Shown here piece after piece: positions 11,049 to 63,080 of a stretch of DNA of 64,000 nt. Made by a program: the position numbers and the translations under genes. This DNA comes from Francisellaceae bacterium UBA6186 (GTDB taxonomy: Bacteria > Pseudomonadota > Gammaproteobacteria > UBA6186 > Azoamicaceae), in assembly GCA_002422785.1 (NCBI GenBank), contig DITK01000053.1, positions 892 through 64,891 of the forward strand, read 5' to 3'. The notes beneath the pieces were generated by a model that saw only the letters and a program-made list of their open reading frames with translations, was not told the origin of the DNA and did no database searches. How positions within the stretch are numbered: the stretch's first letter is position 1; every line of letters begins with the position of its first letter.

Positions 11049-11073
11049 TAGTTGAATAAAACATACTTTAATG

Positions 11074-11328: not shown

Positions 11329-11363
11329 ATCTAAATTATAAAATATTTGTAATATATCATAAA

Positions 11364-44443: not shown

Positions 44444-44506
44444 AATTATATTATCTAGTATAAAATGGCTTTATACTATTTTTTGTGTCAATTTAGGGAT
44501 AATTAT

Positions 44507-45883
44507 ATGATGTTAAATATTCCAAATAAAGATTTTAACAACATGCAACCTTTGCATAAAGAACAAAAAGAAGCAATAGCATTATTATCTATAGGTACAT
44601 TTTTAGAACACTTCGATTTATTGTTATATATTCATATGATACCTATATTAAATGAAGTATTTTTCCCAAAAATAGATCCCAAGTTTGCAACTTTATTGTC
44701 AGGATTAGTATTTTGTTCCACTTATATTTGCAGACCATTTGGAGCTCTTATTTTTGGGTATTTGGGCGATAATTTTGGTCGCAAAATTCCTGTGGTTATA
44801 ACAACTTTTATAATGGCATTATCGTGTATTACTATTGCCAATCTTAAATCTTATGCTGAAATAGGTATTGCGGCAACTTGGATTGTAACTATGTGTAGAC
44901 TTGGGCAGGGTATATCTTCCCTCGGAGAAATAGTTGGTGCTGAAATTTATCTTACGGAAAGTATTAAGCCGCCTCAACAATATTTTGCAGTTTCTTTAAT
45001 GGCTTTTTCCGCAGCAAGTGGGTGTGCTGCGGCTCTTGGTATAGCCTCTTTGGTTACGTCGTTTGGCTTTAATTGGCGTATGGGATTTTGGTTTGGTGCT
45101 TGTATTGCTCTAGTAGGGGTTATTGCTAGAACAACACTAAAAGAAACAAAAGATTTTGCTGATGCCAAATTTAGAATAAAAAATCAATTAGAAAAAAATA
45201 ATATTTCAATAAATATCATAAAAAACAATCCCGTAGTTAAAGAAAAAATAAATAAAACCATAATTTTAGCTTACTCTTTAATACACTGCGGATGGCCTTT
45301 ATGCTTTTATTTAGGCTACATACATTGTGCTAGTATATTAAAAAATTCTTTTGGGTATACTTCTGAACAAGTAATTCATCATAATTTTATGTTATCAATA
45401 GTGCAGTTATTTGGATTTTTCTTTTTAAGAATATATTTAAGCCGTAAAATGGAACCATTAAAGATCCTTAAAATAATTTTGTCAATTTTTTCTGGATTTA
45501 TATTGTTTTTACCATATCTATTAAATAATTGCAGCAATCCTATGTTTTTGTTTATAATTCAATCATTTATAATAATTTTTGCTATCGACATGGCCCCTGG
45601 GACGTCAATTTTTTATTCTTACTTTCCAATATTTAAACGCTTTACTTATGCTGGACTAGCATTTGGTATATCTAGAGCGATAATAAATGTAGCAATTACT
45701 TTCGGTTGTATCTTTTTTACCGAAAAATGGGGATATTACGCACTCATGATAGTTATAATTCCAATTCTAATCGGCTACACATTTGCAATATATTATTTTG
45801 ATGATTTAAATAAGGCAATCGAAAATTATCATAAGAAAAACAATAATATTGTTCCTCTAACAAATTTAACTGAAGCTGGATAG
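44507..45883 (+). CDS. MFS transporter, metabolite:H+ symporter (ProP-like) family
   Basis: GTFLEHFDLLLY (family pattern ..EWYDF.lY), GYLGDNFGRK, about 12 TM segments. Confidence 0.7.
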   Translation: MMLNIPNKDFNNMQPLHKEQKEAIALLSIGTFLEHFDLLLYIHMIPILNEVFFPKIDPKFATLLSGLVFCSTYICRPFGALIFGYLGDNFGRKIPVVITTFIMALSCITIANLKSYAEIGIAATWIVTMCRLGQGISSLGEIVGAEIYLTESIKPPQQYFAVSLMAFSAASGCAAALGIASLVTSFGFNWRMGFWFGACIALVGVIARTTLKETKDFADAKFRIKNQLEKNNISINIIKNNPVVKEKINKTIILAYSLIHCGWPLCFYLGYIHCASILKNSFGYTSEQVIHHNFMLSIVQLFGFFFLRIYLSRKMEPLKILKIILSIFSGFILFLPYLLNNCSNPMFLFIIQSFIIIFAIDMAPGTSIFYSYFPIFKRFTYAGLAFGISRAIINVAITFGCIFFTEKWGYYALMIVIIPILIGYTFAIYYFDDLNKAIENYHKKNNNIVPLTNLTEAG

Positions 45884-46496
45884 AAAAACAAAGACGACTT
45901 AACATATTTTCTATGTCTTTTAATTGACAGTAAGCCGCAACAGTTAAAAAACTTTTTAAAGTTTCTAATACGGTATGTTTAATTTTATCTATAGATTTAA
46001 CATTAATAGTATGCAAATTATGTAATCTATCGAACAACTTTATAATTAATCCATCTTTTTTTTGCTCTGCGTATAATTGTTCCAGTATTTCTGTAGATGT
46101 AATTTTTTTACCAAACCTTATTCTGGTTAAATCGTTAACCTTACTGGCAATCTCTGGATTAAAAATTAAACCGATCATATCCGACGTAAGCTCAGTATCT
46201 TCGATAGTATCGTGTAATATGCTAACAACCATAGCTTCTGTGCTAAATAAATAATTAGAAACAAGATAAGCTACTTCTAGTGGGTGAGAATAATATGGTT
46301 CACCAGATATTCTTTTTTGAGATCCATGATATTTTTTAGCATAATAGATTGCTTTCTTTACCTCTGTAAGATTTACTTGGTCGTTAATGCAGTTATTTTT
46401 ATTTAAAAATATAATTTTTGTTATTAATCTATTTGCATAATAACAACATTCAAATTTAGATTCCCAACAATTTAGATCATGCATATCAATCACCAA
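45753..46496 (-). CDS. Stand-alone HD-domain protein of the RelA/SpoT hydrolase type (small alarmone hydrolase-like)
   Basis: YAKKYHGSQKRISGEPYYSHPLEVAYLV...SILHDTIEDT...VNDLTRI matches the (p)ppGpp hydrolase HD pattern (H.gQ.R.sGePY..HP..VA...LHD..EDT). No synthetase domain. The 3' end overlaps the MFS gene by 131 nt. Confidence 0.65.
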   Translation of the reverse strand: MVIDMHDLNCWESKFECCYYANRLITKIIFLNKNNCINDQVNLTEVKKAIYYAKKYHGSQKRISGEPYYSHPLEVAYLVSNYLFSTEAMVVSILHDTIEDTELTSDMIGLIFNPEIASKVNDLTRIRFGKKITSTEILEQLYAEQKKDGLIIKLFDRLHNLHTINVKSIDKIKHTVLETLKSFLTVAAYCQLKDIENMLSRLCFSIQLQLNLLEEQYYCFSYDNFRLPYLNHQNNILQMCSRLELEL

Positions 46497-47374: not shown

Positions 47375-48250
47375 ATGGGCACATTTGGTTTTTCGTATGG
47401 GGCGTTTGGAGAATTATTACAAGGAGTATTACCAAATGATAGGCATTTTTTAGTTACTTTACCTATTAATATAAAATCTAAGGCTTACTTTAATCATCAG
47501 CCTAGCAAAAAGTTTATTGTTTATCCTGATTGTAAAGAAAAAATAAAAATTTTTATTAATTTATTTTGTAATTATTATGGTATTTCTTCTGGTGGGTATT
47601 TATCTATAGATAGCGAAATCCCAATCGGCAAAGGTTTGTCTAGCTCTACAGCAGATTTAATTGCAGCTTTCCGTGCTTTATCCAAAGCATTTAACATTAA
47701 TTATTCTCCCGAATGTGTAGAAAAATTAATGCGTCAAATTGAACCTTCTGACGGATTATTATACGATGGCGTTGTTGCTTATTATCATAAAGAAGTTTCT
47801 TTGTTGCAAAAATTTAATTATTATCCTGATTTAATTATTCTTGGTGTAGACGAAGGAGGTAAGGTTGATACCATAGAATACAATCGAGTTAAACAAAATC
47901 CATCTATAGAAGAAAAAAATGAATTTAAACAATTATTATCTCAATTTATTCAAGCAATAACAAAAAAAGATTTAAAAACTATTGGCAGTATAGCTACTCG
48001 TAGTACCGAATTAAACCAAAAATATAACTATAAACCATCGTTTAATAATATATTAGAAATTAATTATGCAATTAATGGTTTAGGCTTAATATGTGCTCAT
48101 AGCGGTACCTATGTTGGAATTTTATTAAATAAATTAGATATAGATTTAAATGCGAAAATCAATTATTGTCAGCAAGTATGTAGTAAATTAAATAAAAAAA
48201 TGGAATTATTTCATACCGTAGAAGAAGTAAGTTATGCAGCAATGTGTTAA
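47375..48250 (+). CDS. GHMP-family kinase, PduX (L-threonine kinase)-like
   Basis: N-terminus GAFGELLQG... (PduX-type G.cGE..QG). GHMP motif II PIGKGLSSSTADLIA. Confidence 0.7.
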   Translation: MGTFGFSYGAFGELLQGVLPNDRHFLVTLPINIKSKAYFNHQPSKKFIVYPDCKEKIKIFINLFCNYYGISSGGYLSIDSEIPIGKGLSSSTADLIAAFRALSKAFNINYSPECVEKLMRQIEPSDGLLYDGVVAYYHKEVSLLQKFNYYPDLIILGVDEGGKVDTIEYNRVKQNPSIEEKNEFKQLLSQFIQAITKKDLKTIGSIATRSTELNQKYNYKPSFNNILEINYAINGLGLICAHSGTYVGILLNKLDIDLNAKINYCQQVCSKLNKKMELFHTVEEVSYAAMC

Positions 48251-48353
48251 ATATTTAGCAAAGAAACTATCTGAATCAGAGACTTTCTGGTTAAAAAAAT
48301 TTGAGATGAAATTTGGTAATTATAGAATTTATAATGATATAAGGAATAAAAGT

Positions 48354-49328
48354 ATGAAAGGGATATATTTTTTCTGTTGCGACCCCAACAAAGATCCTGT
48401 TGCATCAGGAATATTTAATCAAGTTATTAACATGTATAATTTGCAAGAAACCACACATATTTTTGATAATCAGCCGGTATTAAAATATGTGGACTTAAAA
48501 GGTAATGAATTTTTGTTTGCCAAAACAGAGGAGGTATTAAGCCATAATTATATAAAATATTTATCACAATTAGAACAATTGAATGATAAATATGATTTTG
48601 CTGGTATTGTAAATTGGCACGAAGGCAAAAACGCTCCAAATCAAATTTTAACTGTGCATACTAATAGCGATGTTGCTAGTGGCAATTTTAGTACAGCTAA
48701 TCCATGGTTGAATAGAAATATCATTCAAGCTATTGAGAATAATAGGTTGTTAGCCGGGCTAAAAGAATTTTCAACTAAAACAGAGGCTACTCATTGGTCC
48801 GGAGTTACTTATCAACAGCCTGCAGAATTAATACCACAATTTACTGTACCTTTGGTTGATATAGAAATAGGTAGCTTACCAGATAGTTGGTCTCATCCTA
48901 TTGCTGCTGAAATTATTGCAACATCTTTAACTCAAGTGTTTGATAAAATTGATCAAGAAGAGGTTATGCCAATTTTGTATATTGGTGGAGAACATTTTGA
49001 TCAAGATCTTACCAATATTGCTATTAATGTGAATTTCCCATTTGCTTTTTGTCACCATTTACCTAATCAATGGTTTAAAGATTATGCCGCCAATCAAGAG
49101 GTGGGGTTTAAATATTTAACCAAATGTAAAGATAGTATTATAGGAGATCTGCGAGCTATATTTTATCATGACGGTATGAGCGGTCCGTTAAAAACTATGG
49201 TAAAGACATTTGCTGAGCAACATAATATACCAGTATTTAAGCATAAAGCATTAAGAGACCCTGATAAATTATTAAAAGAATTACTGAGCAGATCTGTGTC
49301 TGGGAGTCGTCCCAGGCCTCGTATATGA
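48354..49328 (+). CDS. Archaeal-type D-aminoacyl-tRNA deacylase (DtdA/DTD2)-like domain protein (track ORF starts at 48234)
   Basis: NWHEGKNAP..ILTVHTNSD, EATHWSG and VDIEIGSLPDSW resemble DTD2 motifs (ltvH.tGN, EaTHHGP, vEIGS...W) as I recall them. AGGAA lies upstream of ATG 48354. Confidence 0.45.
   Translation: MKGIYFFCCDPNKDPVASGIFNQVINMYNLQETTHIFDNQPVLKYVDLKGNEFLFAKTEEVLSHNYIKYLSQLEQLNDKYDFAGIVNWHEGKNAPNQILTVHTNSDVASGNFSTANPWLNRNIIQAIENNRLLAGLKEFSTKTEATHWSGVTYQQPAELIPQFTVPLVDIEIGSLPDSWSHPIAAEIIATSLTQVFDKIDQEEVMPILYIGGEHFDQDLTNIAINVNFPFAFCHHLPNQWFKDYAANQEVGFKYLTKCKDSIIGDLRAIFYHDGMSGPLKTMVKTFAEQHNIPVFKHKALRDPDKLLKELLSRSVSGSRPRPRI
49300..49315 (+). other. GC-rich hairpin at the 3' end of the DtdA-like ORF
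   Basis: CTGGGA-gtcg-TCCCAG is a perfect 6-bp stem in otherwise AT-rich DNA. It lies 13 nt before the stop and 23 nt before the next start codon. Confidence 0.4.
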
Positions 49329-49337: not shown

Positions 49338-50114
49338 ATGAAAATTTTAATTTTATGCTCAGACGGGCCACATAATAAATATTTAACTTATAGGATAAAT
49401 AAAGAGTTTCCAAATGTTATTACTATAGTAGAGATTTCTAATTTTAAAAAAAAGCGTTTGCTTCTTAAGCATAAATATAAAGATTATTTATATAATCTTT
49501 ATCATGATGTTAGAAGAAATTTAATAGGCCATAATAAGTATCGAGAAGATTTTTTTATTTCTAAAATACATGAACAAGGATGGAATAGAGACAACAAATA
49601 CCATATAGTCGATTGGGTAAATTCTGAACATGTAAGACAAATACTTTGCAATATTAATCCTGATATAACTATTGTTATGGGAACTTCGATAATTAAGCCT
49701 GATATATTAGATTTATTGGGTGCAAATGTAATAAATATTCATGGTGGGTATTTGCCTTATTATAAAGGAAATCATTGTTGTTTTTTTGCATTTTATAATA
49801 ATGAATTCGATAAGATTGGATCTACTATTCATTTTGTTAATAAATTTATAGATCAAGGTGATATCATAGATGTTGTTGTACCGGAAATCACAATCAATGA
49901 CAATGCAGAAACTTTGTATTGTAAGGCTGAATTAGCGGCGATAGAAAAACTTATTGTGTATATAAAAAATTATCAACTTGGTATAGATTTTCCTCGAATT
50001 CCGCAAAAAAATGTAGGAAAAATATATTATACTAGAGATCGTAAGATATACCACGAAATAATGTATTTCTTTAAAAGAAAAGGTTTGTTTAAATATTTAC
50101 AAAATATCGAATAA
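49338..50114 (+). CDS. Formyltransferase (Formyl_trans_N-type, single domain)
   Basis: INIHGGYLPYYKGNHCCFFAF (N.H.s.LP.yRG) and IDQGDII (D.G.i). Lacks the Fmt C-terminal tRNA-binding domain. Confidence 0.65.
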   Translation: MKILILCSDGPHNKYLTYRINKEFPNVITIVEISNFKKKRLLLKHKYKDYLYNLYHDVRRNLIGHNKYREDFFISKIHEQGWNRDNKYHIVDWVNSEHVRQILCNINPDITIVMGTSIIKPDILDLLGANVINIHGGYLPYYKGNHCCFFAFYNNEFDKIGSTIHFVNKFIDQGDIIDVVVPEITINDNAETLYCKAELAAIEKLIVYIKNYQLGIDFPRIPQKNVGKIYYTRDRKIYHEIMYFFKRKGLFKYLQNIE

Positions 50115-50130: not shown

Positions 50131-50994
50131 TCAACCTGGTTTTGTAGCAAAATAGGAATTGATATAAAGTCCAGAAATAATTAAGCAGGTTGCTACGATT
50201 TTCCACCAATCTAGGGTTTCATCTAATAGTAAAATTGAGCTAACCATGCCAAATATAGGCACTAACAAACAAAAAGGTGCTATGGTTGAAACCGGATATT
50301 TACTTAATAATATATTCCAAATATAAAATCCTAAAAAAGTCGCAATATAAGCAATATAAACAATAGCTAACATGGATATATAGTTATGTTGATAAAAACT
50401 ATTTATTATTTGTTCTGTTCCTTCAAAAATTATTGACATCAGCAATAGCAATGGCCAGGCAAATAATCCACCCCAGACAACTAAACCTATAAAATTACTA
50501 GTATTAAATTTTTTCGACATAATGCTGCCTGTTCCCCAAGCGGCGGCCGAAGTTAAGATTAGGACAAAACCAATTAAGGAAACATCTCCGCTTAAATTCA
50601 TACCAATTAAAATAATACCAAAAAAAGCAATTATGGAACCAATAATTTGCTGAATATTTATTGTTTCTTTTAAGAATATTATAGCAAGAAATATACTGAA
50701 AAATACTTGGACTTGAAATAACAATGAGGCAATACCTGCGGTTACCCCCATATTAATGCCTAAAAATAATAGTGCAAATTGTAATGCAAATGCAGTTATG
50801 CCATAAACTGCAATTAATTTGATAGGTACAGCTGGTGGTTTAATAAAGAAAATTGCTGGCATACTAACCAAAAAAAATCTTATAAAAGAAAACAGTAATG
50901 GTGGAATAAATTTAAGGCCAAATTTGATGACTACAAAATTAAATCCCCAAATAGCTGCTAATAAGATACTCATTATTAAATGTTGTATTTTCAT
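50131..50994 (-). CDS. DMT-superfamily transporter (two EamA domains)
   Basis: Ten predicted TM segments in two repeats. AAIWGFNFVVIK and AAAWGTGSIMSK are EamA-type motifs. Confidence 0.8.
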   Translation of the reverse strand: MKIQHLIMSILLAAIWGFNFVVIKFGLKFIPPLLFSFIRFFLVSMPAIFFIKPPAVPIKLIAVYGITAFALQFALLFLGINMGVTAGIASLLFQVQVFFSIFLAIIFLKETINIQQIIGSIIAFFGIILIGMNLSGDVSLIGFVLILTSAAAWGTGSIMSKKFNTSNFIGLVVWGGLFAWPLLLLMSIIFEGTEQIINSFYQHNYISMLAIVYIAYIATFLGFYIWNILLSKYPVSTIAPFCLLVPIFGMVSSILLLDETLDWWKIVATCLIISGLYINSYFATKPG

Positions 50995-51121: not shown

Positions 51122-52195
51122 ATGAATAGCCAAGCTATAGACTATACAAAATATTTAGATTTTAATTATTTATTTGCAACTTTTTCAGACTCAATTCTTT
51201 TACCTAAAATTATCCATCTTAATAACAATCTTTATGCTGCTGTATTTTCTATAATGAAATTATTGCCAGCCAAGTACATTATCTCTTCTGCTGTTAATAG
51301 AGGAGAGATTAAAGAAGGTTATACTATAGTAGATACTTCTAGTGGTACCTTTGCTTTAGGTATCGGGATTATTTGTGCAGAGCTTGGTTTTAGATTTAAG
51401 ATTTTTGGGGATCCGGCTATTGATCCCGTTTTAATTCAAAGACTAGAAGATTTAGGCGGCAGTATACATATAAGTACTAACCCTAAAAACCCAGGTGCTT
51501 ATCAGAAATTACGATTAGAAGCACTAAATACTTTTATTTCACAAAATACACTAAGTTACTGGATGAGGCAATACGATAATTTAGATAATTATAAATCTTA
51601 TGCAATTGTTGGAGAACTAATACTAAAAACTTTAGGTTCAATAGTTAATATTGTCGGTACTGTAGGTTCTGGCGGATCTACTGCTGGCATAATTAAGGCT
51701 ATTAGATTAAAAAATATTGATGCTAAATTAATTGGAGTTGATACGTTTAATAGTGTTTTATTTGGTCAGCCTGATGGTAAAAGAATATTAAGGGGACTTG
51801 GCAACTCTATTATGCCGAAAAATCTAAATCATAGTTGTTATGATGAAATTCATTGGGTGGCAGCAAACGATGCTTATTATTACACCAAATGGTTATTTAA
51901 AAACAAGTCCATTTTTTGCGGGCCAACTAGTGGTGCAGCATATCAAGTTGCTAATTATTTAGCAAAAAAAAATCCACAAGAAAAATATATATTTATTGCC
52001 CCAGATGAAGGTTATCGTTATCTTACTACAGTTTATAATGATATTTGGCTGAAGCAGCAAGAATTTTATAATACCAATATTACGGTAGAGCCAAGTTTAG
52101 TTGAGTCACCATTATATGCAAACAGTCCTTGGACATCTATTAATTGGAGCAGAAGAACTTATCAACAAGTATTAGGTAAAGAATTAAATGCATAG
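51122..52195 (+). CDS. Fold-type II PLP-dependent enzyme (cysteine synthase/CBS/SbnA-like)
   Basis: Candidate PLP-Lys in FSIMK. TSSGTFALGIG occupies the TSGNTG-loop position. Gly-rich phosphate loop GTVGSGGSTAGI. Confidence 0.65.
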   Translation: MNSQAIDYTKYLDFNYLFATFSDSILLPKIIHLNNNLYAAVFSIMKLLPAKYIISSAVNRGEIKEGYTIVDTSSGTFALGIGIICAELGFRFKIFGDPAIDPVLIQRLEDLGGSIHISTNPKNPGAYQKLRLEALNTFISQNTLSYWMRQYDNLDNYKSYAIVGELILKTLGSIVNIVGTVGSGGSTAGIIKAIRLKNIDAKLIGVDTFNSVLFGQPDGKRILRGLGNSIMPKNLNHSCYDEIHWVAANDAYYYTKWLFKNKSIFCGPTSGAAYQVANYLAKKNPQEKYIFIAPDEGYRYLTTVYNDIWLKQQEFYNTNITVEPSLVESPLYANSPWTSINWSRRTYQQVLGKELNA

Positions 52196-54878
52196 TAACT
52201 TTAAACAAAAAAACATTGCTTTTATAGAAAGCAATACTACTGGAACAGGAAGAAAATTTTTATTGGCAGCCAAAGATCATGGTCTTACACCAATTTTTAT
52301 TACCAGTAACCCTGGTAAATATAGCTTTTTAGCAGAAGAATTAATACAGCCGATTGTTTTAAATACTAATTCCAATCAAGATGTCTATCAATATTTAAAA
52401 AATATTAGCAATTTGCAAGCAATTTTTTCTACATCAGAATATTATATAGGATCGGCCTCTAGCTTAGCTAGGGATTTGGGGCTGTTATATAATAGCCCAG
52501 AGGCTATAAATCTTTGCAGAAATAAATATTTATTGGCAGGAAAATTAAGACAATATAATATAAATTGTCCTAAAACCATAAAAATTGATTCCGCCGAGCA
52601 AATAAATAGTATAGAAAATAATTTTTGTTTTCCTGTTGTAGTAAAGCCAGTCAAAGGATCTGGTAGTGTTGGGGTTAAATTATGCTTTAATAAACAAGAA
52701 GTTTTTGCACACGCAAAATTATTATTTAATGATGATAATTTAGAATCTCGTTGTGTGGTTATCCAAGAATATATTGCAGGAGAAGAATATTCGGTTGAAA
52801 CGCTAAGTTTTAACCAACAAATTAATATCATAGGAATAACGAAAAAATATTTAGGAGAGCCGCCTTTTTTCTTGGAAGTTGGCCACGATTTTCCTGCACA
52901 ATTATCCAAAGATCTTACAAAAAAAATAGAAGAATTAGTTTCAAATAGTTGCCACAAGTTAGGCTTGTTATGTGGCCCCGCTCATACTGAAATAAAAATT
53001 AAAAACGATATTCCTTATATTATAGAAATTAATCCTAGGCTTGCCGGAGGCATGATTCCAGAAATTATTAATCAGGCTACTGGTATTGATTTAATAACAC
53101 AAACTATAAATTTATTAATTGGAGAAAAAGTTAATTTAACTAAAAAAAATCAACAATTTTCAGCTATTCGTTTTATAGTGCCAAAGAATAATGGCACCAT
53201 TAAATCTATTAAATTAAACCATGACAAGCACAAATATCAATTAGTAGATTTTAAAATTAATAAACATATAAATGATGTTGTGGTTTTACGAGGAGACTTT
53301 AGAGATAGATTAGGGCATATTATTGTTAAAGCAGATACTTTGTATGCCTGTCAACAATTAGCCGAAAGATCTATCGGATCTGTATTATTAGAAATAGAAC
53401 CCAATCAAATTATAACAGAGCAAAATATCAACACTGGCAGATTAAAAGATGTGTTACTGCCAGAAATTCAAGAACTGATTAATAAAAACAATATTGTTGA
53501 TGATACTATTAAAGAATTAGAGATTTTAGCTGATATTGATGAAGCTCATATTATGATGTTACTTATAACTAATAACATTGATAGTAATAAAGCCAAGATG
53601 TTATTACAAGAAATAACAACTCTTAAAACTGACAACTTTGATCCTGTAAAAAATAATAATGCTCCTAGGGGTATATATTTATTGTATGAGAATTATTTGA
53701 TTCAAAAATTGGGTATTAATGTTGCTGGGGATGTGCATATAGCAAGATCTAGGAATGATATCAACGCTACCAAATTTAAATTGAATTTACGTGAGCGATT
53801 TATACACATTTACCAAAAAGTTTGGCAATTAAGATCCATATTAGTAAATTTATCGAAATCACATGTAAAAACATCTATACCAATTTATAGTCAGTATCAA
53901 ACAGCTTTACCAGGAACCTTGGGACATTATCTGCTGGGGATAGAAGCTGGTTTAACTAGAGAACAATCAGCATTACAAGCTATATATACTGATTTGGAAA
54001 TATCTCCTCTAGGGGCAGGAGCTGGAGGTGGAACTTCTTTTGCTATAAATCCAGAAATTACCGCAAAATTTTTAGGTTTTAGCTCTTGTGCCAGCAATTC
54101 TCTTGATGCCAGTGCTAGCCGCGATGTGTCACTTAGGATGTTATCTATATTATGTAGTTGCTCTATGTTATTAAGTAGGTTTGTTGAAGATTTACAATTA
54201 TGGTCGACTAATGAATTTAAATTGATTGAATTTCCTGATTATCTTTGTGGTGGTTCTTCTATGATGCCACAAAAAAAGAATCCATATTTATTAGAAAAAA
54301 TTAAAGGCATGTTATTATCTATGCCTGCAAATTATACTACTTGTTTATTAATCATGTATAAAGTACCCTTTGGCAATTCTTATGAAATCAGTACCGAATC
54401 ATTAAAACCTATAAACAAAGCATATGATGACTTTATTATAATTATTAATTTATTATCTATTATTATTAAAAACATTAATATTAAACATGAACATATTAAA
54501 AAAAATCAATTGGAAAATTTAACTACTGCGACTTATATAACAGATCTTCTGGTTAGGAATAAATACTGTAGCTTTAGGGAAGCTCACCATAAAATTGGAT
54601 CGATAATAAGAGATGCTTTAGATGCTGGCATAGATCCTCATGCGGCTATTTATGCCTTTTGCGATCCGATTATTAATAAATTAGATTTAGATCCTTTAAA
54701 TGTAGCCTTACAAATTGAATATGGTGGTGGCCCTGGGTTTAATTCCACTAGTAATCAATATTATCGAGCAATCGATAGATTGAATAAACACGGCGTATGG
54801 TTGACTAATAAAAAAAGGGAATTAGCTAATTGTTATTTATACAGAAAGAATAAAATTAAAGAAATTATTGCAGAATAA
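52188..54878 (+). CDS. Fusion protein: N-terminal ATP-grasp ligase domain plus C-terminal argininosuccinate-lyase-like (fumarase/aspartase superfamily) domain
   Basis: ATP-grasp: FPVVVKPVKGSGSVGVKLC, VIQEYIAGEEYSVE, IIEINPRLAGG. Lyase: HIARSRNDINAT, TALPGTLGHYLL, and the superfamily signature GSSMMPQKKNP at 54252-54284. Confidence 0.8.
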   Translation: MHSNFKQKNIAFIESNTTGTGRKFLLAAKDHGLTPIFITSNPGKYSFLAEELIQPIVLNTNSNQDVYQYLKNISNLQAIFSTSEYYIGSASSLARDLGLLYNSPEAINLCRNKYLLAGKLRQYNINCPKTIKIDSAEQINSIENNFCFPVVVKPVKGSGSVGVKLCFNKQEVFAHAKLLFNDDNLESRCVVIQEYIAGEEYSVETLSFNQQINIIGITKKYLGEPPFFLEVGHDFPAQLSKDLTKKIEELVSNSCHKLGLLCGPAHTEIKIKNDIPYIIEINPRLAGGMIPEIINQATGIDLITQTINLLIGEKVNLTKKNQQFSAIRFIVPKNNGTIKSIKLNHDKHKYQLVDFKINKHINDVVVLRGDFRDRLGHIIVKADTLYACQQLAERSIGSVLLEIEPNQIITEQNINTGRLKDVLLPEIQELINKNNIVDDTIKELEILADIDEAHIMMLLITNNIDSNKAKMLLQEITTLKTDNFDPVKNNNAPRGIYLLYENYLIQKLGINVAGDVHIARSRNDINATKFKLNLRERFIHIYQKVWQLRSILVNLSKSHVKTSIPIYSQYQTALPGTLGHYLLGIEAGLTREQSALQAIYTDLEISPLGAGAGGGTSFAINPEITAKFLGFSSCASNSLDASASRDVSLRMLSILCSCSMLLSRFVEDLQLWSTNEFKLIEFPDYLCGGSSMMPQKKNPYLLEKIKGMLLSMPANYTTCLLIMYKVPFGNSYEISTESLKPINKAYDDFIIIINLLSIIIKNINIKHEHIKKNQLENLTTATYITDLLVRNKYCSFREAHHKIGSIIRDALDAGIDPHAAIYAFCDPIINKLDLDPLNVALQIEYGGGPGFNSTSNQYYRAIDRLNKHGVWLTNKKRELANCYLYRKNKIKEIIAE

Positions 54879-54885: not shown

Positions 54886-56574
54886 TTAGTCTGTTGCTAT
54901 TTTAATAGCTTTACCTGAAAAACCAATTCCTATAGCACAAATATTAATAATTTTCCTAGATTGCAGCTCTGTAGTATATTTAGATTGTTTAATTTGCATT
55001 AATGCTGTCTGTGCAGCATGCTCTAATTTTGCTGGATCATTGATAACTTTAAATTCCATAACAATTCCAAGCTGCTTAGGATCTTTAGGAATAATTAACA
55101 AATCATAACGCCCATCGCCAGATTCTCTATTAGATCTAATTTCATGAGTGTCTTTCAACCCTGCCAAGATCCCTAACATTAATCCTTGATAAAATATTTC
55201 TTGTGTAGTTTTGCTAGTATCATGGTAACTTACCATCTCTGCTATAATATTTTGTAAATTTAGCTCAAATACTGCTACTTGCCCAGTAGTTAATGCGACT
55301 AATAATTCTTGATACCAAATTATTCCTCGACTACCAGATAACCATTCTATAAATATTTGTTTATATAAAAATTCTACTTCTTTGTTTGGGATCGCTAATT
55401 CACACAAATTACCGTATTCAGTAAAATTAGAAGATATTACTTTAAGATATCCTGACATTAAAAATAAACTCCAAATACCTGATCTATTTTTTTGCAAATC
55501 TAAAAATACTATGTGTTCATTAACTACTTCTGTAATGGCCTCCCCTGTAATTAATTTAGCAATTTTGTCTTGAGTATTTAATTCGGAAGTGAGCAATAGA
55601 TCTCTAATTAAATCATTACTGCTAGTATTAATCCAATATGGCTCTATTTTTCCTCTTTTTTTAATAAATTTAATAATAGACCACGGATTATAAATTGTTG
55701 TTCCACCAAAATTATAACCATTATACCATTCTTTGGTTTGGCTAGTGCTATTAGGCAATTTAGCCGTAATCAATAAATCACTAACCTCTGTTTCAGTAAA
55801 CCCAAAATAATCACAATAATTTTGATCTAACACCGAGTAAATTTCTACGTTGCTAAGGCCTGAGAATAAGCTCTCTTTTGATACTCTTAAAATTCCAGTT
55901 AAAATTGCTCTTTTAAAAAATCCATTGTCTTTTAATCCGCTACTAAGTAAATTCCTCATAAATGAGATTAATTCTTCATAGTAATTATGTGAGTATGATT
56001 CCTGAATTGGGGTGTCGTACTCATCAATTAATATAATAGCTGGCTGATTAGTTACTTTGTTAATAAATTTAGTTAATAATTTAATGCTTTCATCCCAACA
56101 AACTGGATCAGCTTTTTTTTCTAAAATCTTTTTAAACAAATCCCTCTCTTCTGGATCTAATTTTTCGCTATGTAATAAAAATCTATATTCTGAGTAAACA
56201 TTGGCTATTTGTACTTTGATATGTTCATAACAGGAATCAAAAGTTTTATACTTGGCGTCTTTTAGGGTAATAAAAATTACTGGGTATTGCCCCTGTTCTT
56301 GCATGCAAATCGTATCAGCAGCAATTTTTAGTTCATTAAACAAATCTTTAGTTAATTTGCCATTTACAGTGTTAGCAAAAAAATGCTGTAACATCGATAG
56401 ATTCAAAGTTTTACCAAAACGTCTTGGACGAGTTAAAACAATTACTGGTGTGCTATCACCTATAATTTCTTTGATTAACAAGGACTTATCAACATATAAA
56501 TATCCTTTGTTAGTAAGAGGGTTTTTATATGTAACTAAAGAGCTAAAATCACTAACACCTACGGGTAAATGCAT
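54886..56574 (-). CDS. AAA-ATPase-like domain / PD-(D/E)XK nuclease (DUF1703-type) protein
   Basis: N-terminus LPVGVSDFSSLV...YVDKSLLIKEII...VLTRPRRFGKTLNLSMLQHFF. C-terminus ESGDGRYDLLIIPKD...GIVMEFKV (E..GR.D...-..E.K nuclease core). Confidence 0.8.
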   Translation of the reverse strand: MHLPVGVSDFSSLVTYKNPLTNKGYLYVDKSLLIKEIIGDSTPVIVLTRPRRFGKTLNLSMLQHFFANTVNGKLTKDLFNELKIAADTICMQEQGQYPVIFITLKDAKYKTFDSCYEHIKVQIANVYSEYRFLLHSEKLDPEERDLFKKILEKKADPVCWDESIKLLTKFINKVTNQPAIILIDEYDTPIQESYSHNYYEELISFMRNLLSSGLKDNGFFKRAILTGILRVSKESLFSGLSNVEIYSVLDQNYCDYFGFTETEVSDLLITAKLPNSTSQTKEWYNGYNFGGTTIYNPWSIIKFIKKRGKIEPYWINTSSNDLIRDLLLTSELNTQDKIAKLITGEAITEVVNEHIVFLDLQKNRSGIWSLFLMSGYLKVISSNFTEYGNLCELAIPNKEVEFLYKQIFIEWLSGSRGIIWYQELLVALTTGQVAVFELNLQNIIAEMVSYHDTSKTTQEIFYQGLMLGILAGLKDTHEIRSNRESGDGRYDLLIIPKDPKQLGIVMEFKVINDPAKLEHAAQTALMQIKQSKYTTELQSRKIINICAIGIGFSGKAIKIATD

Positions 56575-56581
56575 AATTGGC

Positions 56582-56875
56582 CTAAATTTTATTGTTTATA
56601 ATACAAGCATATTTATGCAAAACACTAGCAATTAAGGTTTGATACGGCAAACCTTCGTAAACTGCCTTCTCTTTGATCTTTTCTAGATCTATTTTCGACA
56701 ACCTAATATTGATCCTAGCTTCTTTCTTAATATAACGACTAGCTGCCTTTTGAGCCAACTCTTTTTCTTTAGCTACATCAGGAATACTGATCGAATGTTT
56801 ATCATTTAGATTGTCTTCTAGATTTTTTTCATAAGAATCTAGCTTGTTTACTACAGTCTTCTTACGAACGCTCAT
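56582..56875 (-). CDS. Ribbon-helix-helix antitoxin, BrnA/CopG family
   Basis: LDSYEKNLE...KKEARINIRLSKIDLEKIKEKAVYEGLPYQTLIASVLHKYA matches the BrnA-type pattern (syE...kkd.rInIRls..DL..ik.kA.eeGiPYQTLisS.lHKY). GGAGGG RBS upstream. Confidence 0.6.
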   Translation of the reverse strand: MSVRKKTVVNKLDSYEKNLEDNLNDKHSISIPDVAKEKELAQKAASRYIKKEARINIRLSKIDLEKIKEKAVYEGLPYQTLIASVLHKYACIINNKI

Positions 56876-57151
56876 ACTCCACCCTCCATTAGCTAAATTT
56901 AGCCTATTGTGTGCCTTTTGTCAACCAAAGAATCTAGTGGGACTTGAGGTAACGTAAACAACTTAATTAACTGGATGAAATAATAGCAGATTTGTATACA
57001 GCCTATGATACAGTTGGTTTAAGCCAGGAGTTATTAAGTCAGGATACACTGTTATTGGCTGATTGTTTAATTTGCCGAAAAGCAATAGCTTCTGGGAAAA
57101 AAATTTATGAAGGCAAAGTTAATAATCCTCGAAAAATAGTAACATTAAAAA

Positions 57152-57637
57152 ATGAAAGTGATTATGTTAATAATAGACATTAAGAATCTTATAAAACAAG
57201 TATATAAATGTAACATTCACGAAGTCCCGTGTTTTGAGCCTTACATGACTTTTATCGAAGAAGGTAAAAAAACAATTGAAGGTAGAGTTGGAACTTCCTA
57301 TTATACAAAAATCAGATCAGGTAGTATTTTACGTCTACATAACAGAAAAAAAGAAATTTGGTGTGATGTTACACGTACACATGCCTATTCGACATTTAAA
57401 GATATGTTAGAAAAAGAAGGACTTAAAAACATGCTTCCTCAGGCAAAATCTATAGAAGAAGGGGTAAAAATATACAGAAAATTTCCAACTTTTGCTGAAA
57501 AAGAAAATAAGTTTGGAGCTTATGCTATAGAAGTTAAGTTTATTGACCTGGAAAAATTAAAACAAAAAGCTATTGTTATTACCTCTAAAGAAAAACGACC
57601 TCGCAAACAGAACGATGATTATGGACAAGATCGCTAA
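57152..57637 (+). CDS. ASCH (PUA-like) domain protein with basic C-terminal tail
   Basis: PYMTFIEEGKKTIEGRVG...IRSGSILRL...THAYSTFKDMLEKEGLKNMLPQAKSIEEGVKIYRKF...FGAYAIEVKF fits the ASCH pattern. Tail KEKRPRKQNDDYGQDR. The start is uncertain. Confidence 0.5.
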   Translation: MKVIMLIIDIKNLIKQVYKCNIHEVPCFEPYMTFIEEGKKTIEGRVGTSYYTKIRSGSILRLHNRKKEIWCDVTRTHAYSTFKDMLEKEGLKNMLPQAKSIEEGVKIYRKFPTFAEKENKFGAYAIEVKFIDLEKLKQKAIVITSKEKRPRKQNDDYGQDR

Positions 57638-57664: not shown

Positions 57665-58429
57665 TCATATCCCAGCAAAATACTCTTGCTCCATGCCTAC
57701 TAAATTTTGAATAATATGCTTAGAAATACCTCGAATATTACGTAATTCAGAATGATTGTTATTAATTATTGCATCTTTAAAACCAGGCTCTAGCAATTTT
57801 AATTTACAATAAAATTTATCCCGTTTATTAGGAAAATTACTGCTATATTTTTGAGAACTACCACGCAAATAAACACATAAAACCCTAATATTTGGCACTT
57901 CGTGGATTAATTTACCAACCCCATAGGTAAAATTTTGGGTGTCAACCCTTCCTTCATGCCCCCTATGCCCTTCTGGAAATAACATAGTATATTCGCCTTT
58001 AAGCAACAAATATTTAGCTATTTTTATCGGTTGATTGTTAATTGTTTTAGGCGCACCTACATCAATAAAAATACATTTACCAATGTAACTAATAAATTTA
58101 TAGAAAAAATTTTTCTTCATATGCGTGGTTTTAGGGAAATTCCAAGCCATAGTATGAAAATTAATTAGATAATCTCGACAAGAACTAAATGCTAGAGTTA
58201 GCAATACAGAATCTATATAAGTTAAATGATTAGAGCAAATGAGCAATGGATCAGAAGTTTTTTCCATTATAGACTTAAATTGTTTACGGATCTCTTTAAT
58301 TTTTAATATACGATAGCTTTTAATTATAAATAAAAACCACCAATAACCCGAATAAAGCAAAGAAAACGCAACAAAACTTATAGCCCGCTGCAACAATAAC
58401 TTGGCTTTTATGGTCTTAGAAATACTCAT
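57665..58429 (-). CDS. PlsC-family (lysophospholipid/glycerolipid-type) acyltransferase
   Basis: N-terminal TM segment. HX4D block CSNHLTYIDS. FPEGHRG (FPEGtRs) block. Confidence 0.75.
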   Translation of the reverse strand: MSISKTIKAKLLLQRAISFVAFSLLYSGYWWFLFIIKSYRILKIKEIRKQFKSIMEKTSDPLLICSNHLTYIDSVLLTLAFSSCRDYLINFHTMAWNFPKTTHMKKNFFYKFISYIGKCIFIDVGAPKTINNQPIKIAKYLLLKGEYTMLFPEGHRGHEGRVDTQNFTYGVGKLIHEVPNIRVLCVYLRGSSQKYSSNFPNKRDKFYCKLKLLEPGFKDAIINNNHSELRNIRGISKHIIQNLVGMEQEYFAGI

Positions 58430-58469
58430 TTGACTCTAATGTTAGTTTAGCTCCGCTAATAAAATACTG

Positions 58470-58730
58470 TTAACTGATTTTTTGTTCAATAACAGCTATA
58501 GCATCCCCAATAGTACGAATTTTATCGGCTAAATCGTCGTCTATTGCTACATTAAATTTATCTTCAATGTCAATCACAATATCAACAAGCCTAGCAGAAT
58601 TTACGCCTAAATCTTCGATAAAACGTGTTTCTTTAGTAACATTTTTTACAGCATCATTTTTACAATAGGGCGTAATTATTTCTACTAAATCATTTAAAAT
58701 TACAGTAGTATCGACAGCATTAATCTCCAC
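58470..58730 (-). CDS. Acyl carrier protein (divergent, not the housekeeping AcpP)
   Basis: 86 aa. Phosphopantetheine site LGVNSARLVDIV (canonical LGaDSLd.VEL), acidic helix II/III. Confidence 0.75.
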   Translation of the reverse strand: MEINAVDTTVILNDLVEIITPYCKNDAVKNVTKETRFIEDLGVNSARLVDIVIDIEDKFNVAIDDDLADKIRTIGDAIAVIEQKIS

Positions 58731-58758
58731 AGTAGTCTCCTAAATTTTAAAATAAAAC

Positions 58759-60036
58759 TTATTTATCCCATCTTTTGAAAATCAAACAGGCATTAACATC
58801 TCCAAAACCAAAACTGGCTTTCGCCACAATATTCAAATCTATTTCTATGGTTTTCTGAACAATACTACCGGAAAATGGCTCCAGCTTAAAGTGAATATCT
58901 TCGCAATTTATTGAACCATGAACAAAGCCATTAGTTAATTGTAAAATAGACGCAACACATTCTATAGCACCAGCCGCCCCTAAAGTATGACCAATTAAAG
59001 ATTTAGTTGAATTAATAAGTGGAAATTCTTCTGGTTTGCAATTTAACGCAGTTTGCCAATTATTAATTTCTAAAGTATCCGCCATAGTTGCAGTTAAATG
59101 TCCATTAATTAAACTTATATCCCTAGTACTAATATTTGCCATATCAAGTGATTTTTGTATGCACCTAACCACACCAAATGGATTGGGTGCCGAAATACTG
59201 CCTCCATTTCTTTGGCCACCACAATTTACATGAGTTCCAATAATTTCAGCATAAATCTTTGCCCCCCGTGCCTCGGCACTGTCTAGACTCTCTACCATCA
59301 AAATACCGGCACCAGCACCAGGCACAAACCCAGAAGCCGTTGCACTCATCGGACGAGATCCTTTTTCTGGAGTATCATTAAAACCCCTAGCCAATACCCG
59401 CATCGCATCAAACGTAGCCCAAGTATATTGAGAAATGCCTTCTGTAGCTCCAGCTAAAATACGTTTAGCAAGACCTGCTTTTATAGCCCAAAAAGCATTA
59501 CTAATGGCCTCTGTTCCCGTACTACAAGCACAAGAATTGGTCGTAACCTGCCCGCCCAAACCAAGTAAACCACCAATATTGGCACTCGATGCACTCGACA
59601 TGGTTTGCTCCACCATAGTTGAACCTAGTCTTTTTACTTTTTTCTGATCAGTAAGTGGTACCACATATCCACCAATCGTTTCGCTACCACCCACCCCAGT
59701 TCCAATAATAGCTCCTGTATCCCAATCAGTAATATTGGAACTAGGATCAACAACTTTAAAACCAGCGTCTAACCAACAATCTATAGCCGCAATCGCTGCA
59801 AAAATCATGCTGCTATTCATAGCTATTAAAGCCTGTGAAGATAAATATTTTTGTTTTAAAACATCTATATTTTGCGGAATACCAGCTAACTGGCAAACAA
59901 AATTTAATTCTTGTAATAATTTAGAATGACGAATACCAGATATCCCTGTTCTTAATGCCGCCTCAAACGCCTCCAACCCATGGGCGTTCGGTGCTATAAC
60001 CCCAAGCCCAGTAATAACAACTCGATTAGATTTCAT
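58759..60036 (-). CDS. Beta-ketoacyl-ACP synthase, KAS I/II (FabB/FabF-like)
   Basis: VVITGLGVIAP. Active-site Cys in NSCACSTG. NDTPEKGSRP. His in INGHLTAT and STKSLIGHTLGAAG. FGFGDVNACLIF. Confidence 0.9.
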   Translation of the reverse strand: MKSNRVVITGLGVIAPNAHGLEAFEAALRTGISGIRHSKLLQELNFVCQLAGIPQNIDVLKQKYLSSQALIAMNSSMIFAAIAAIDCWLDAGFKVVDPSSNITDWDTGAIIGTGVGGSETIGGYVVPLTDQKKVKRLGSTMVEQTMSSASSANIGGLLGLGGQVTTNSCACSTGTEAISNAFWAIKAGLAKRILAGATEGISQYTWATFDAMRVLARGFNDTPEKGSRPMSATASGFVPGAGAGILMVESLDSAEARGAKIYAEIIGTHVNCGGQRNGGSISAPNPFGVVRCIQKSLDMANISTRDISLINGHLTATMADTLEINNWQTALNCKPEEFPLINSTKSLIGHTLGAAGAIECVASILQLTNGFVHGSINCEDIHFKLEPFSGSIVQKTIEIDLNIVAKASFGFGDVNACLIFKRWDK

Positions 60037-60494
60037 ACAGAAACTCCCATGCCAGACGCCAAAGCTGAAGCTAATATATTTTGATCTTGATCATACATTT
60101 CAATTTGTGCACGTAACTTCATTTTTCTCCAAAAAATTTTTTTTGCTTTTACTGTAATAGTATCTCCCGGGTATACTGATTTAAAAAATTCAACTTTTGC
60201 ATCCGTAAACATGGTTATCCAATTTTTGATTTGATCCGCCGGTAATGACATCGACAATAAATAAATGCCAAATGCTACCACCCCAATTTGACACATAGAT
60301 TCTAATAAAATAACCCCAGGAGTTATAGCTTTATCCGGGAAATGACCAGAATAAAAAAATTCATCTTTTTTAAAATTATAGGTTCCACAAATTTCGTTTT
60401 CATTAATATAAATAATTTGATCAATAAAACGAAATGGTTTTTGTTGCGGTATATAATGCAAAATTTCTGTTGGCGTTAATGCTATAGTTAACAT
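60033..60494 (-). CDS. FabZ-like hot-dog-fold 3-hydroxyacyl-ACP dehydratase
   Basis: IPQQKPFRFIDQI and FFYSGHFPDKAITPGVILLESMCQ (F..GHFP..P..PGVL..E...Q). Confidence 0.75.
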   Translation of the reverse strand: MLTIALTPTEILHYIPQQKPFRFIDQIIYINENEICGTYNFKKDEFFYSGHFPDKAITPGVILLESMCQIGVVAFGIYLLSMSLPADQIKNWITMFTDAKVEFFKSVYPGDTITVKAKKIFWRKMKLRAQIEMYDQDQNILASALASGMGVSV

Positions 60495-60531
60495 AAATTA
60501 TATTCTCTCGATCAATGTTTTTCGCAATTCG

Positions 60532-61131
60532 CTAGCTTTCAATTAAATTTCCCCCTACCGCATTATTATCTAAGTGAGGGTAATTACTATACTGTATCCC
60601 AGTAAATACTCCAACTCTAGCATCTTTTATAACATATATAGCCTGTCCGTCGACAAAAACATTGGCAGAACCAATAGCAATTGAAGATCCTGCCGATTTT
60701 CTTTGTACTAACCTTTTAATTTCTACCTCATATGTTACTAATTTATTGTGAGGACGAATTTGGCCAAAAAAATCTACCTCTTTGACGCCCAATGCTCTTC
60801 CCGCACCTTTCGCGCCACAGAGAGTAGCATAAAATCCTATCAATTGCCAAACCGCATCCACCCCTAAACAACCAGGCTGCACCGGATCGGCACGAAAATG
60901 ACACTGAAAAAACCAATCACTTAACGAAATATCCTGCTCTGCTACTATTTTACCTTTATTACCAATGCGTTCTATCTTAGTTACCCTATCAAACATCAAC
61001 ATCGGAGGAGCCGGAAGTATCCCACAACCTTCAAGTGGCGGATCCTTTACTAACGAACCCCACGCAAAAGCTAGCAATTCCTGTTTATTAAAAGAAGTTT
61101 TTTTTAAATAATCATCATACTTAATTTTCAT
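60532..61131 (-). CDS. fabA: 3-hydroxydecanoyl-ACP dehydratase/isomerase FabA
   Basis: LPAPPMLMFDRVTKI, WFFQCHFRADPVQPGCLGVDAVWQLIGFY, GRALGVKEVDFFGQ are collinear with E. coli FabA. Has a ~20-aa C-terminal extension. Confidence 0.9.
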   Translation of the reverse strand: MKIKYDDYLKKTSFNKQELLAFAWGSLVKDPPLEGCGILPAPPMLMFDRVTKIERIGNKGKIVAEQDISLSDWFFQCHFRADPVQPGCLGVDAVWQLIGFYATLCGAKGAGRALGVKEVDFFGQIRPHNKLVTYEVEIKRLVQRKSAGSSIAIGSANVFVDGQAIYVIKDARVGVFTGIQYSNYPHLDNNAVGGNLIES

Positions 61132-61137
61132 AAATGT

Positions 61138-62136: not shown

Positions 62137-62350
62137 TATTTACTTATTTACATTTCTATTTTTATGATAATTAATACCATAGCTAAATTTTAATTAGCGA
62201 TATGTTAACAGTTCTTTAATTTTTAACAATGTAGTATTTTTAGTTTTGTCGCAAATTTTATTAATAATTTCAATGTCTTGTCAAAACCAATTAAAGTTAA
62301 ATTAACAACTAATACTATTTACCATAACAAGATTATTTAAAGTTAGATCG

Positions 62351-62953: not shown

Positions 62954-63080
62954 CCTATCATGTTAAGCGCATATTCTTAATTGTCGATCAGTTATAATAA
63001 TCTTCAATTATCATTTTAATATTACTTTCTTAATACATTACCAACAAGAGAATTTTTTAAAATTAACAGTACTGTTTCAA

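Follow-up and report, generated by a model that had tools for sequence, protein, structure and literature searches.

A predicted DabC-type ATP-grasp/lyase fusion enzyme and its partner genes in an uncultured gammaproteobacterium

The dabABC operon of Burkholderia thailandensis E264, described by Li et al. 2024 in iScience (PMC10906522), encodes a route to 2,3-diaminobutyrate (Dab). DabA is a GHMP-family L-threonine kinase that yields O-phospho-threonine, and DabB is a cysteine-synthase-type pyridoxal 5'-phosphate (PLP) enzyme that alone in vitro joins O-phospho-threonine or O-phospho-serine to L-aspartate, not to L-glutamate, giving N-(1-amino-1-carboxy-2-propyl)-L-aspartate (ACPAA) or N-(2-amino-2-carboxyethyl)-aspartate (ACEAA), respectively (PMC10906522). 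DabC, a two-domain "lyase family / ATP-grasp" protein with a C-domain resembling argininosuccinate lyase (ASL) and a 16-aa linker, turns supplied ACPAA into (2S,3R)-2,3-diaminobutyrate and fumarate in vivo, and DabB with DabC in the absence of DabA makes L-2,3-diaminopropionate (L-Dap) from O-phospho-serine (PMC10906522). Other Dab operons encode the halves of DabC as individual proteins or join the N-half to the PLP enzyme, and kinases were met only in Dab producers (PMC10906522). Here we analysed a 64,000-nt stretch of Francisellaceae bacterium UBA6186 (contig DITK01000053.1, assembly GCA_002422785.1), called the window below, in which one gene at 52188..54878 on the plus strand encodes an 896-aa fusion of an ATP-grasp and an ASL-like domain. 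An original prediction, made from the same letters, had read this protein as a single-chain module that uses aspartate as nitrogen donor. Our analysis indicates that the product of this gene is probably an enzyme of the DabC type, which would complete a route to a 2,3-diamino acid by way of a kinase, a PLP enzyme and a lyase.

Reading frame, domains and family of the fusion gene

The fusion open reading frame (ORF) is unbroken in both the ORF list and the translation, and neither a stop nor a frame break lies within it, including between 53350 and 53500, where the original prediction had allowed for two separate genes; that alternative fails. The PLP gene upstream ends at 52195 (junction ...AAATGCATAG...), so the claimed overlap of 8 nt is correct, the shared letters being ATGCATAG. 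All of the motifs that had been quoted were found in the translation (FPVVVKPVKGSGSVGV, EYIAGEEYSVE, EINPRLAGG, HIARSRNDINAT and GTLGHYLL), and GSSMMPQKKNP occupies aa 689-699, that is 54252-54284, exactly where it had been placed.

Pfam, NCBIfam and the homologues agreed that the two domains truly share one chain. Pfam placed ATP-grasp_3/4 at aa 110-289 (ATP-grasp_3, E 2.6e-21), LAL_C2 at aa 328-403 (E 1.4e-06; 28.9 bits, just under the 29.4 cutoff), Lyase_1 at aa 504-709 (E 1.3e-38) and ASL_C2 at aa 779-819 (E 6.6e-07). The NCBIfam model NF002563 (PRK02186), which covers exactly this ATP-grasp plus lyase architecture and carries the name "argininosuccinate lyase", matched the protein end to end, with 891.2 bits against a cutoff of 625 over model positions 3-886 of 890. 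The fused protein was also met on independent contigs, at 84, 83, 65 and 63% identity (905-915 aa), and therefore the fusion is no assembly artefact. Among the best 120 database homologues, 834-941 aa in length, both domains were present in every one. An AlphaFold model built on the homologue alignment (predicted local distance difference test (pLDDT) 92.5, pTM 0.92) contained two folded halves, connected by a linker (about aa 405-424) that was disordered, and the Foldseek matches fell on separate halves, with an L-amino-acid ligase (LAL) on the N-half and EDDS (ethylenediamine-N,N'-disuccinate) lyase and ASL on the C-half.

The architecture is thus already described, catalogued as NF002563/PRK02186 and studied as DabC, and the window protein is a further member. 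The earlier statement that no enzyme of this architecture had been characterised has to be withdrawn; an already characterised architecture was what the original prediction had itself named as grounds for giving that statement up.

A predicted kinase, PLP enzyme and lyase route

Five lines of evidence converge on the Dab-type assignment, namely the family profile, an N-terminal motif, the gene set, homology to genes of Streptomyces canus and the neighbourhood. The published cloning primer encodes a DabC N-terminus, MTGIFVFIES, that ends in the first residues of the family motif F[IV]ESNT[TS]G[TS]G; 119 of 120 homologues have this motif, as does the window protein (KNIAFIESNTTGTG; FIESNTTGTG, aa 12-21). 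A 25-nt stretch of that primer had no match in the genome collection searched, and a scan with an N-domain profile, from an alignment headed by a Burkholderia homologue, gave no Burkholderia among the matches listed. Two Burkholderia proteins, P0109 and P0111, were tried as DabC and rejected as paralogues with different termini. All three Dab-type genes, for a GHMP kinase, a PLP enzyme and the fusion, lie within the window.

Amphomycin contains 2,3-Dab and 3-methyl-aspartate. The amphomycin producer S. canus (PMC9581180) carries, in strain DSM 40017 (locus L053), an amphomycin-type cluster with genes for a PLP enzyme, a lyase, an ATP-grasp protein and a GHMP kinase, next to genes for a glutamate mutase, an acyl-AMP ligase and an ABC transporter. 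The window N-domain aligned over its full length with the ATP-grasp protein of this cluster (33% identity, E 2e-69), the C-domain with its stand-alone lyase (35%, full length, E 2e-92), the GHMP kinase with its kinase (36%, full length, E 1e-64), and the PLP enzyme with its PLP enzyme (45%, E 1e-112, alignment reaching aa 352).

Based on these homologies, the route would run as follows. The GHMP kinase would phosphorylate L-threonine. The PLP enzyme would then expel the phosphate and join the amino group of L-aspartate to the beta-carbon, as DabB does in vitro, to form N-(1-amino-1-carboxy-2-propyl)-L-aspartate; with O-phospho-serine the product would be the C3 analogue ACEAA, also known as "toxin A". 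In the last step, Ser690 of the C-terminal domain would take the succinyl C-beta proton, as in EDDS lyase and ASL, and fumarate would leave, so that (2S,3R)-2,3-diaminobutyrate or L-2,3-diaminopropionate remains; DabC in vivo and EDDS lyase running in reverse in vitro are the precedents. Aspartate would serve as the nitrogen donor, joined by PLP chemistry rather than by ATP-dependent ligation, and the ATP of the pathway would be spent by the separate kinase.

This scheme keeps part of the original prediction and replaces another. Aspartate as donor and fumarate as leaving group stand on the precedent of DabB and DabC, and the proposed tie of the lyase to the adjacent PLP enzyme holds, its predicted substrate being the product of that translationally coupled enzyme; the part that does not survive is the attachment of aspartate by the ATP-grasp domain, in a step like that of ArgG, PurA or PurC, since DabB attaches aspartate alone by beta-replacement in vitro (PMC10906522). 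A channelled version of that idea, in which the ATP-grasp domain would couple aspartate with an acceptor that the PLP enzyme supplies and the fused lyase would then remove fumarate, could still draw on an ATP-grasp active site that is intact and under strong purifying selection, on the pairing of this domain with the lyase, fused or adjacent, and on the fact that PMC10906522 assigns the domain no function. We consider it improbable, given that DabB alone forms the aspartate adduct from O-phospho-threonine or O-phospho-serine in vitro, that Dab arises in vivo from supplied ACPAA through DabC (PMC10906522), and that the N-domain resembles dipeptide-forming LALs and not ArgG, PurA or PurC. With a putative DabB-type PLP enzyme and a predicted activating kinase both present in the window, a ligase for the attachment of aspartate would not be needed.

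The PLP enzyme has SbnA as its best match in the PDB (1.2e-30), and its PLP lysine aligns with that of SbnA. It scored 196.8 bits against TIGR03945, the SbnA family model, under the cutoff of 349.95, and no ornithine-cyclodeaminase-like (SbnB-type) gene was found among the annotated genes of its neighbourhood; for both reasons we rejected its identity as an SbnA-type Dap synthase. The alignment with SbnA stops at aa 313, and the C-terminal extension of the window enzyme is common to the S. canus Dab-type enzyme; with DabB as precedent, it would presumably take aspartate rather than glutamate.

Active sites in the fumarase/aspartase superfamily form across the subunits of a tetramer. The superfamily has three conserved regions, among them the SS-loop GSSxMPxKxN and the SRND motif, which are present in the C-domain. 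Its best solved relative by sequence was EDDS lyase (6G3D/6RX8, E 2e-47), aligned over aa 417-894 with the long C-terminal helix included, and the top Foldseek match to its fold was 6G3I of the same enzyme (3.5e-28, TMt 0.85). The protein has S690, S691, K696, N698, E703 and S521-R-N-D524, all of them invariant (100%) across 200 C-domain relatives, and the lyase domain therefore retains both the catalytic loop and the carboxylate-binding motif, as expected from the original prediction. In an alignment to GTSSIMPQKKNP of 6g3d, S690 falls on Ser280, the residue in the SS-loop that acts as catalytic base of EDDS lyase, an enzyme that cleaves and forms N-substituted aspartates (PMC6973171). EDDS lyase also reversibly joins L-Dap to fumarate (PMC10792612) to give toxin A, and so runs the DabC reaction with the C3 substrate backwards. 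The C-domain is accordingly predicted, by homology, to release fumarate from N-(1-amino-1-carboxy-2-propyl)-aspartate or N-(2-amino-2-carboxyethyl)-aspartate.

The histidine of GTLGHYLL (H580), which had been taken for the catalytic one, is the wrong residue; this position is H in 101, Y in 73 and F in 21 of the 200 relatives. It is Q569, in SQYQ, that aligns with the "T-H" His of ASL (E. coli GYTHLQ), which is His162 in the numbering of duck delta-2 crystallin. The dyad S568-Q569 is invariant in 120 fused homologues and reads T-Q in EDDS lyase. A His stands at the Q569 position in 48 of the 200 C-domains, and the stand-alone S. canus lyase, the one looked at, keeps Thr-His. The difference between Ser-Gln and Thr-His appears to track the fused or split architecture.

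That we are dealing with a true ArgH, active in arginine biosynthesis and merely extended by an accessory domain, as the database label would have it, is scarcely credible to us. NF002563 and several sources do name the family "argininosuccinate lyase", and the fold and the catalytic loop are of the ASL type. Against this, the protein scored 262.9 bits with the TIGR00838 equivalog, under the cutoff of 279.5, the "T-H" His of ASL is invariably Gln in the fused family, and EDDS lyase is the best structural relative. The genes conserved beside it code for a GHMP kinase and a PLP enzyme of the beta-replacement kind instead of arginine biosynthesis, and the Burkholderia pseudomallei locus L004 has a separate ArgG/ArgH-like pair beside its fusion. 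With the ArgH model under its cutoff and EDDS lyase closest, the database name is misleading, and the window protein, which NF002563 would label argininosuccinate lyase, is better annotated as the probable terminal enzyme of a 2,3-diaminobutyrate/diaminopropionate pathway.

A lyase that runs toward C-N bond formation, or is bypassed, with export of an N-substituted aspartate chelator of the toxin A, EDDS or aspergillomarasmine type, seems very improbable. The closest structure, EDDS lyase, is used preparatively for C-N bond formation, the PLP product ACEAA is toxin A itself, and an exporter is conserved beside the genes. The characterised systems supply free Dab or Dap (PMC10906522), elimination should be favoured at cellular concentrations, and no further coupling enzymes of the aspartate or ethylenediamine type were identified.

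Several points weigh against the DabC-type assignment that we prefer. The role of the window protein is here read from its sequence, and the homology of the window proteins to DabA, DabB and DabC of E264 (GenBank BK065153) is indirect, by way of the family model, the primer-encoded N-terminus, the description in the paper and the Streptomyces genes. DabC itself was assayed in vivo only, the protein being insoluble, and the paper gives its N-domain no role (PMC10906522). The kinase gene is not adjacent: it lies 2.9 kb upstream of the PLP gene, with three genes, one of them on the opposite strand, in between. At the position of the His in ASL and in the split lyases of Streptomyces, the fused subfamily carries Gln, and for this reason the details of its mechanism may differ. 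Finally, the choice of Dab over Dap is a prediction from the rule of PMC10906522 that a kinase in the cluster implies Dab.

With the kinase present, 2,3-diaminobutyrate is the most likely product. The same pathway may instead make L-2,3-diaminopropionate from O-phospho-serine, the kinase phosphorylating serine or serving otherwise, which we judge possible but unlikely. DabB and DabC can make L-Dap from O-phospho-serine without DabA (PMC10906522), no kinase was seen within reach in 21 of 84 loci (described below), and the kinase of the window stands outside the operon of the PLP and fusion genes. Conversely, this kinase is a full-length homologue (36%) of the one from a cluster of the Dab-product type, it is kept in the cluster of all close relatives, and kinases were met in Dab producers only (PMC10906522).

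The ATP-grasp domain and the distribution of the module

The N-domain is closest to LALs (3VOT, 4WD3, BacD, the NCBIfam family DdaF and Pfam LAL_C2), with a match to 3vot at 1.7e-21 in the PDB sequence search and a TMt of 0.86 in Foldseek. Ten residues (K113, K153, E200, E204, H233, H266, E268, E280, N282 and R284) show at least 99% conservation across 204 N-domains of both the fused and the split kind; going by what is known of the fold, we take them to include the ATP-binding lysines, hinge glutamates, Mg ligands and the catalytic Arg. Such conservation favours an active enzyme over a scaffolding role, and the N-domain, which is fused or adjacent to the lyase in nearly every locus, most likely catalyses a real ATP-dependent carboxylate-amine step. 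The kinase, PLP and lyase steps need no second ATP-dependent step, which leaves the domain outside the published scheme. It may ligate the nascent diamine or fumarate, or pull the reversible lyase step in another way. We offer only as a tentative and rather unlikely proposal that the ATP-grasp half performs a reaction absent from the published three-step scheme and that the module of this clade makes a small exported metabolite. That a conserved, catalytically intact ATP-grasp partner accompanies a route with no call for it in the chemistry published so far is nevertheless of modest but real interest.

We surveyed 84 loci, comprising 80 from species-representative genomes of many phyla, the window contig and three contigs with close homologues, using partner profiles seeded from the window proteins. 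A PLP homologue beside the ATP-grasp gene was found in 79, a lyase in 77 and a kinase in 63. The N- and C-domains were fused in 34 of the 84 loci and encoded by separate genes of the same locus in 43, and in one the N-domain shared a chain with the PLP enzyme. Searched exhaustively, the N-domain matched 598 representative clusters at E<=1e-30; matches in genomes numbered more than 520. Of the best 150 clusters, 40 were fused (>=840 aa) and about 100 stand-alone (about 400 aa). The dab module occurs in Acidobacteriota, rhizobia, Chlamydiae, Rickettsiaceae, Francisellaceae-like metagenome-assembled genomes (MAGs) and actinomycetes, and thus reaches, in fused and split forms, well past the antibiotic clusters built around non-ribosomal peptide synthetases (NRPSs).

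Locus L004 (positions 1-12685; B. pseudomallei, GCA_900593045.1) carries the fused homologue P0109 (37% identity) with a GHMP kinase and a PLP enzyme, and also a formyltransferase, a methyltransferase, an aminotransferase, a cupin and the ArgG-like and ArgH-like pair. By virtue of the fusion and this pair, it holds two systems with aspartate as nitrogen donor side by side. The same pattern of a formyltransferase with an extra lyase was seen in L005, L006 and L017, with no kinase seen in L006.

Gene neighbourhood and comparison with described systems

The features of the window are collected in Table 1. The PLP and fusion genes form a two-gene unit that diverges from the gene for an EamA exporter, and genes for an FkbM methyltransferase, the kinase, a DTD2-like protein (PF04414, "D-aminoacyl-tRNA deacylase") and a formyltransferase lie upstream on the plus strand. 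The EamA protein scored 215 bits with the O-acetylserine/cysteine exporter model, under its cutoff; its gene holds the same position in L002, L003, L085 and L087 and is present in L086. The DTD2-like gene stands beside dab genes in L002, L012/L086, L062, L076, L085, L087 and L088, and the formyltransferase is co-located in L002, L012/L086, L062, L085, L087 and L088. Both are accessory genes in the cluster of this clade, and both are found with dab genes in several distant lineages. Genes for the kinase, the DTD2-like protein, the formyltransferase, EamA, the PLP enzyme and the fusion are kept together in the relatives L085 (83% identity), L002 (65%) and L086 (58%), and in L062 (Rhodothermales) the order on one strand is formyltransferase, kinase, PLP enzyme, N-domain, lyase and DTD2-like protein.

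Table 1. Positions of the fusion gene, its parts and the neighbouring genes in the window
Feature	Position	Strand	Evidence
DabC-type fusion protein (predicted), 896 aa	52188..54878	+	Continuous ORF, NF002563, AlphaFold model
N-domain, aa 1-405, L-amino-acid-ligase-like ATP-grasp	52188..53402	+	Pfam ATP-grasp_3/4, LAL_C2; PDB 3vot
Interdomain linker, about aa 406-424	53403..53459	+	pLDDT <50 at aa 408-412, no secondary structure in AlphaFold model
C-domain, aa 425-896, predicted C-N lyase, fumarase/aspartase superfamily	53460..54875	+	Lyase_1, ASL_C2, EDDS lyase match
Signature loop GSSMMPQKKNP	54252..54284	+	Alignment to EDDS lyase 6g3d
DabB-like PLP beta-replacement enzyme, SbnA/cysteine-synthase fold, translationally coupled to fusion gene	51122..52195	+	PALP 6.7e-30
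DabA-like GHMP kinase, predicted L-threonine kinase	47375..48250	+	GHMP_kinases_N; S. canus kinase homology
EamA-family exporter	50131..50994	-	EamA 1.7e-34
DTD2-like (PF04414) protein, likely start M41 (48354)	48234..49328	+	Pfam 2.7e-26
Formyltransferase-family protein	49338..50114	+	Formyl_trans_N 1.6e-13

The start of the DTD2-like protein at M41 is probable because its homologues begin there. In a metagenomic scan of the DTD2-like family, dab genes adjoined in only 3 of 80 loci (L087, L088 and L109), and we rejected the protein as a general dab-specific partner for editing or self-protection; as the family mostly occurs without dab genes, it is an accessory and not a core partner. The formyltransferase gene lay directly downstream of the DTD2-like gene in 7 of the 80 metagenomic loci, and the two may form a separate two-gene module.

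No NRPS-sized ORF was present in the ORF list of the 64-kb window, where none exceeds 900 aa and the largest are the 896-aa fusion and one of 890 aa. Together with the EamA exporter, formyltransferase and methyltransferase conserved nearby, this suggests that the diamino acid is probably exported free or after small tailoring, not built into a non-ribosomal peptide. The product of this clade may be a 2,3-diamino acid that is free, formylated, methylated or LAL-ligated, made with the participation of the conserved DTD2-like, formyltransferase and EamA genes, and an NRPS-free, exporter-linked setting is unusual for a dab-like pathway.

On the minus strand at 57665-63965, the window holds a lipid-type gene set (PlsC-like acyltransferase, acyl carrier protein, ketosynthase, ApeI-like dehydratase, FabA-like, KASIII and malonyl-CoA:ACP transacylase genes), and a phosphopantetheinyl transferase gene lies upstream of the dab genes at 43715-44443. 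In L085, the 83% relative, the fusion gene is followed by genes for a major facilitator superfamily (MFS) protein, an HD_4 protein, FkbM and a phosphopantetheinyl transferase, and then by the same lipid-type genes. The dab module and the lipid-type set thus remain neighbours despite rearrangement, and a lipo-amino-acid product is therefore possible. Between the fusion and lipid-type genes of the window, at 54886-57637, are a gene with AAA-ATPase_like and PD-(D/E)XK (PDDEXK_9) domains, a small CopG-like gene and an ASCH-domain gene; the segment looks like an insertion, as these genes are absent at the same position in L085. A gene for a stand-alone RelA/SpoT-type HD hydrolase (HD_4, about 245 aa; 45753-46496, minus strand) overlaps the 3' end of the convergent MFS gene (44465-45883, plus strand) by about 130 nt, and the pair recurs with the same overlap in L085.

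GC content is uniform across the region at about 30%, and recent horizontal transfer is accordingly unsupported. An Rfam scan of the window found no rRNA or other RNA, and a promoter and terminator scan returned 43 promoter-like sites versus 60 in shuffled controls, an uninformative result in such AT-rich DNA. The nearest labelled genomes with a homologue are MAGs, L012 (Francisellaceae, 58% identity) and L011 ("Proteobacteria sp. RBC072"). Ankyrin-repeat and mitochondrial-carrier-like genes occur in the loci of relatives, and their presence suggests a host-associated lifestyle. In L086 (12871-18339; a MAG labelled Francisellaceae), a mitochondrial-carrier-like gene and a gene for a 1158-aa class I aminoacyl-tRNA synthetase resembling isoleucyl-tRNA synthetase (IleRS) lie between the fusion gene and the formyltransferase gene, and the synthetase may be either the housekeeping copy or one for resistance or an accessory role; in L002, a Mito_carr-like gene is inside the cluster and a 1361-aa ankyrin-repeat protein is encoded nearby.

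Among known systems, the window resembles that of B. thailandensis E264. DabC and the fusion protein share a single chain of two domains, a short linker and an ASL-like C-domain, and both have a cysteine-synthase-type PLP enzyme and a GHMP kinase as partners; as in E264, aspartate would be the nitrogen donor and fumarate the product released. The E264 genes form one contiguous operon that feeds an NRPS (monobactam) pathway, whereas in the window the kinase belongs to a separate upstream operon, no NRPS occurs in 64 kb, the neighbours are genes for an EamA exporter, a DTD2-like protein, a formyltransferase and an FkbM methyltransferase, and the DNA comes from an uncultured, AT-rich gammaproteobacterium with about 30% GC. 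The split Dab genes known from clusters for lipopeptides and uridyl peptides (friulimicin dabA/dabB, pacidamycin pacQST and S. canus L053) cover the same four functions, and those of L053 are 33-45% identical to the window parts over the full length, but encode the ATP-grasp protein and the lyase separately; the S. canus genes are moreover embedded in an NRPS cluster with a glutamate mutase and an acyl-AMP ligase, and the split lyase keeps the ASL-type T-H (YTHFQ) where the fused family has S-Q.

The other relatives each share one step or one domain. The SbnA/SbnB route (also SulH/SulG and CmnB/CmnK) begins with a homologous PLP beta-replacement on O-phospho-serine, but takes glutamate as donor, resolves the adduct oxidatively to 2-oxoglutarate by an NAD+ dehydrogenase, and has neither lyase nor ATP-grasp protein. 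EDDS lyase (Chelativorans sp. BNC1; PDB 6G3D-6G3I, 6RX8) has the base Ser in the SS-loop, a Gln at the ASL His position and N-substituted aspartates as substrates, including the L-Dap/fumarate pair; it differs as a stand-alone catabolic enzyme without an ATP-grasp domain, at about 26% identity, and its pocket residue D290 is Tyr or Phe in the DabC-type family. The LALs (BL00235 3VOT, BacD/YwfE and DdaF) share with the N-domain the fold, LAL_C2 and all ATP-grasp catalytic residues, at about 20% identity, but the N-domain has its own invariant FIESNTTGTG and the Dab pathway has no known dipeptide product. ArgG/ArgH, PurA/PurB and PurC/PurB likewise bring in nitrogen from aspartate and release fumarate through lyases of the same superfamily; their ATP-dependent ligases place aspartate on a carbonyl or ureido carbon, whereas the Dab-type route uses a PLP-dependent Michael addition to aminoacrylate or aminocrotonate, with the ATP spent earlier by the kinase.

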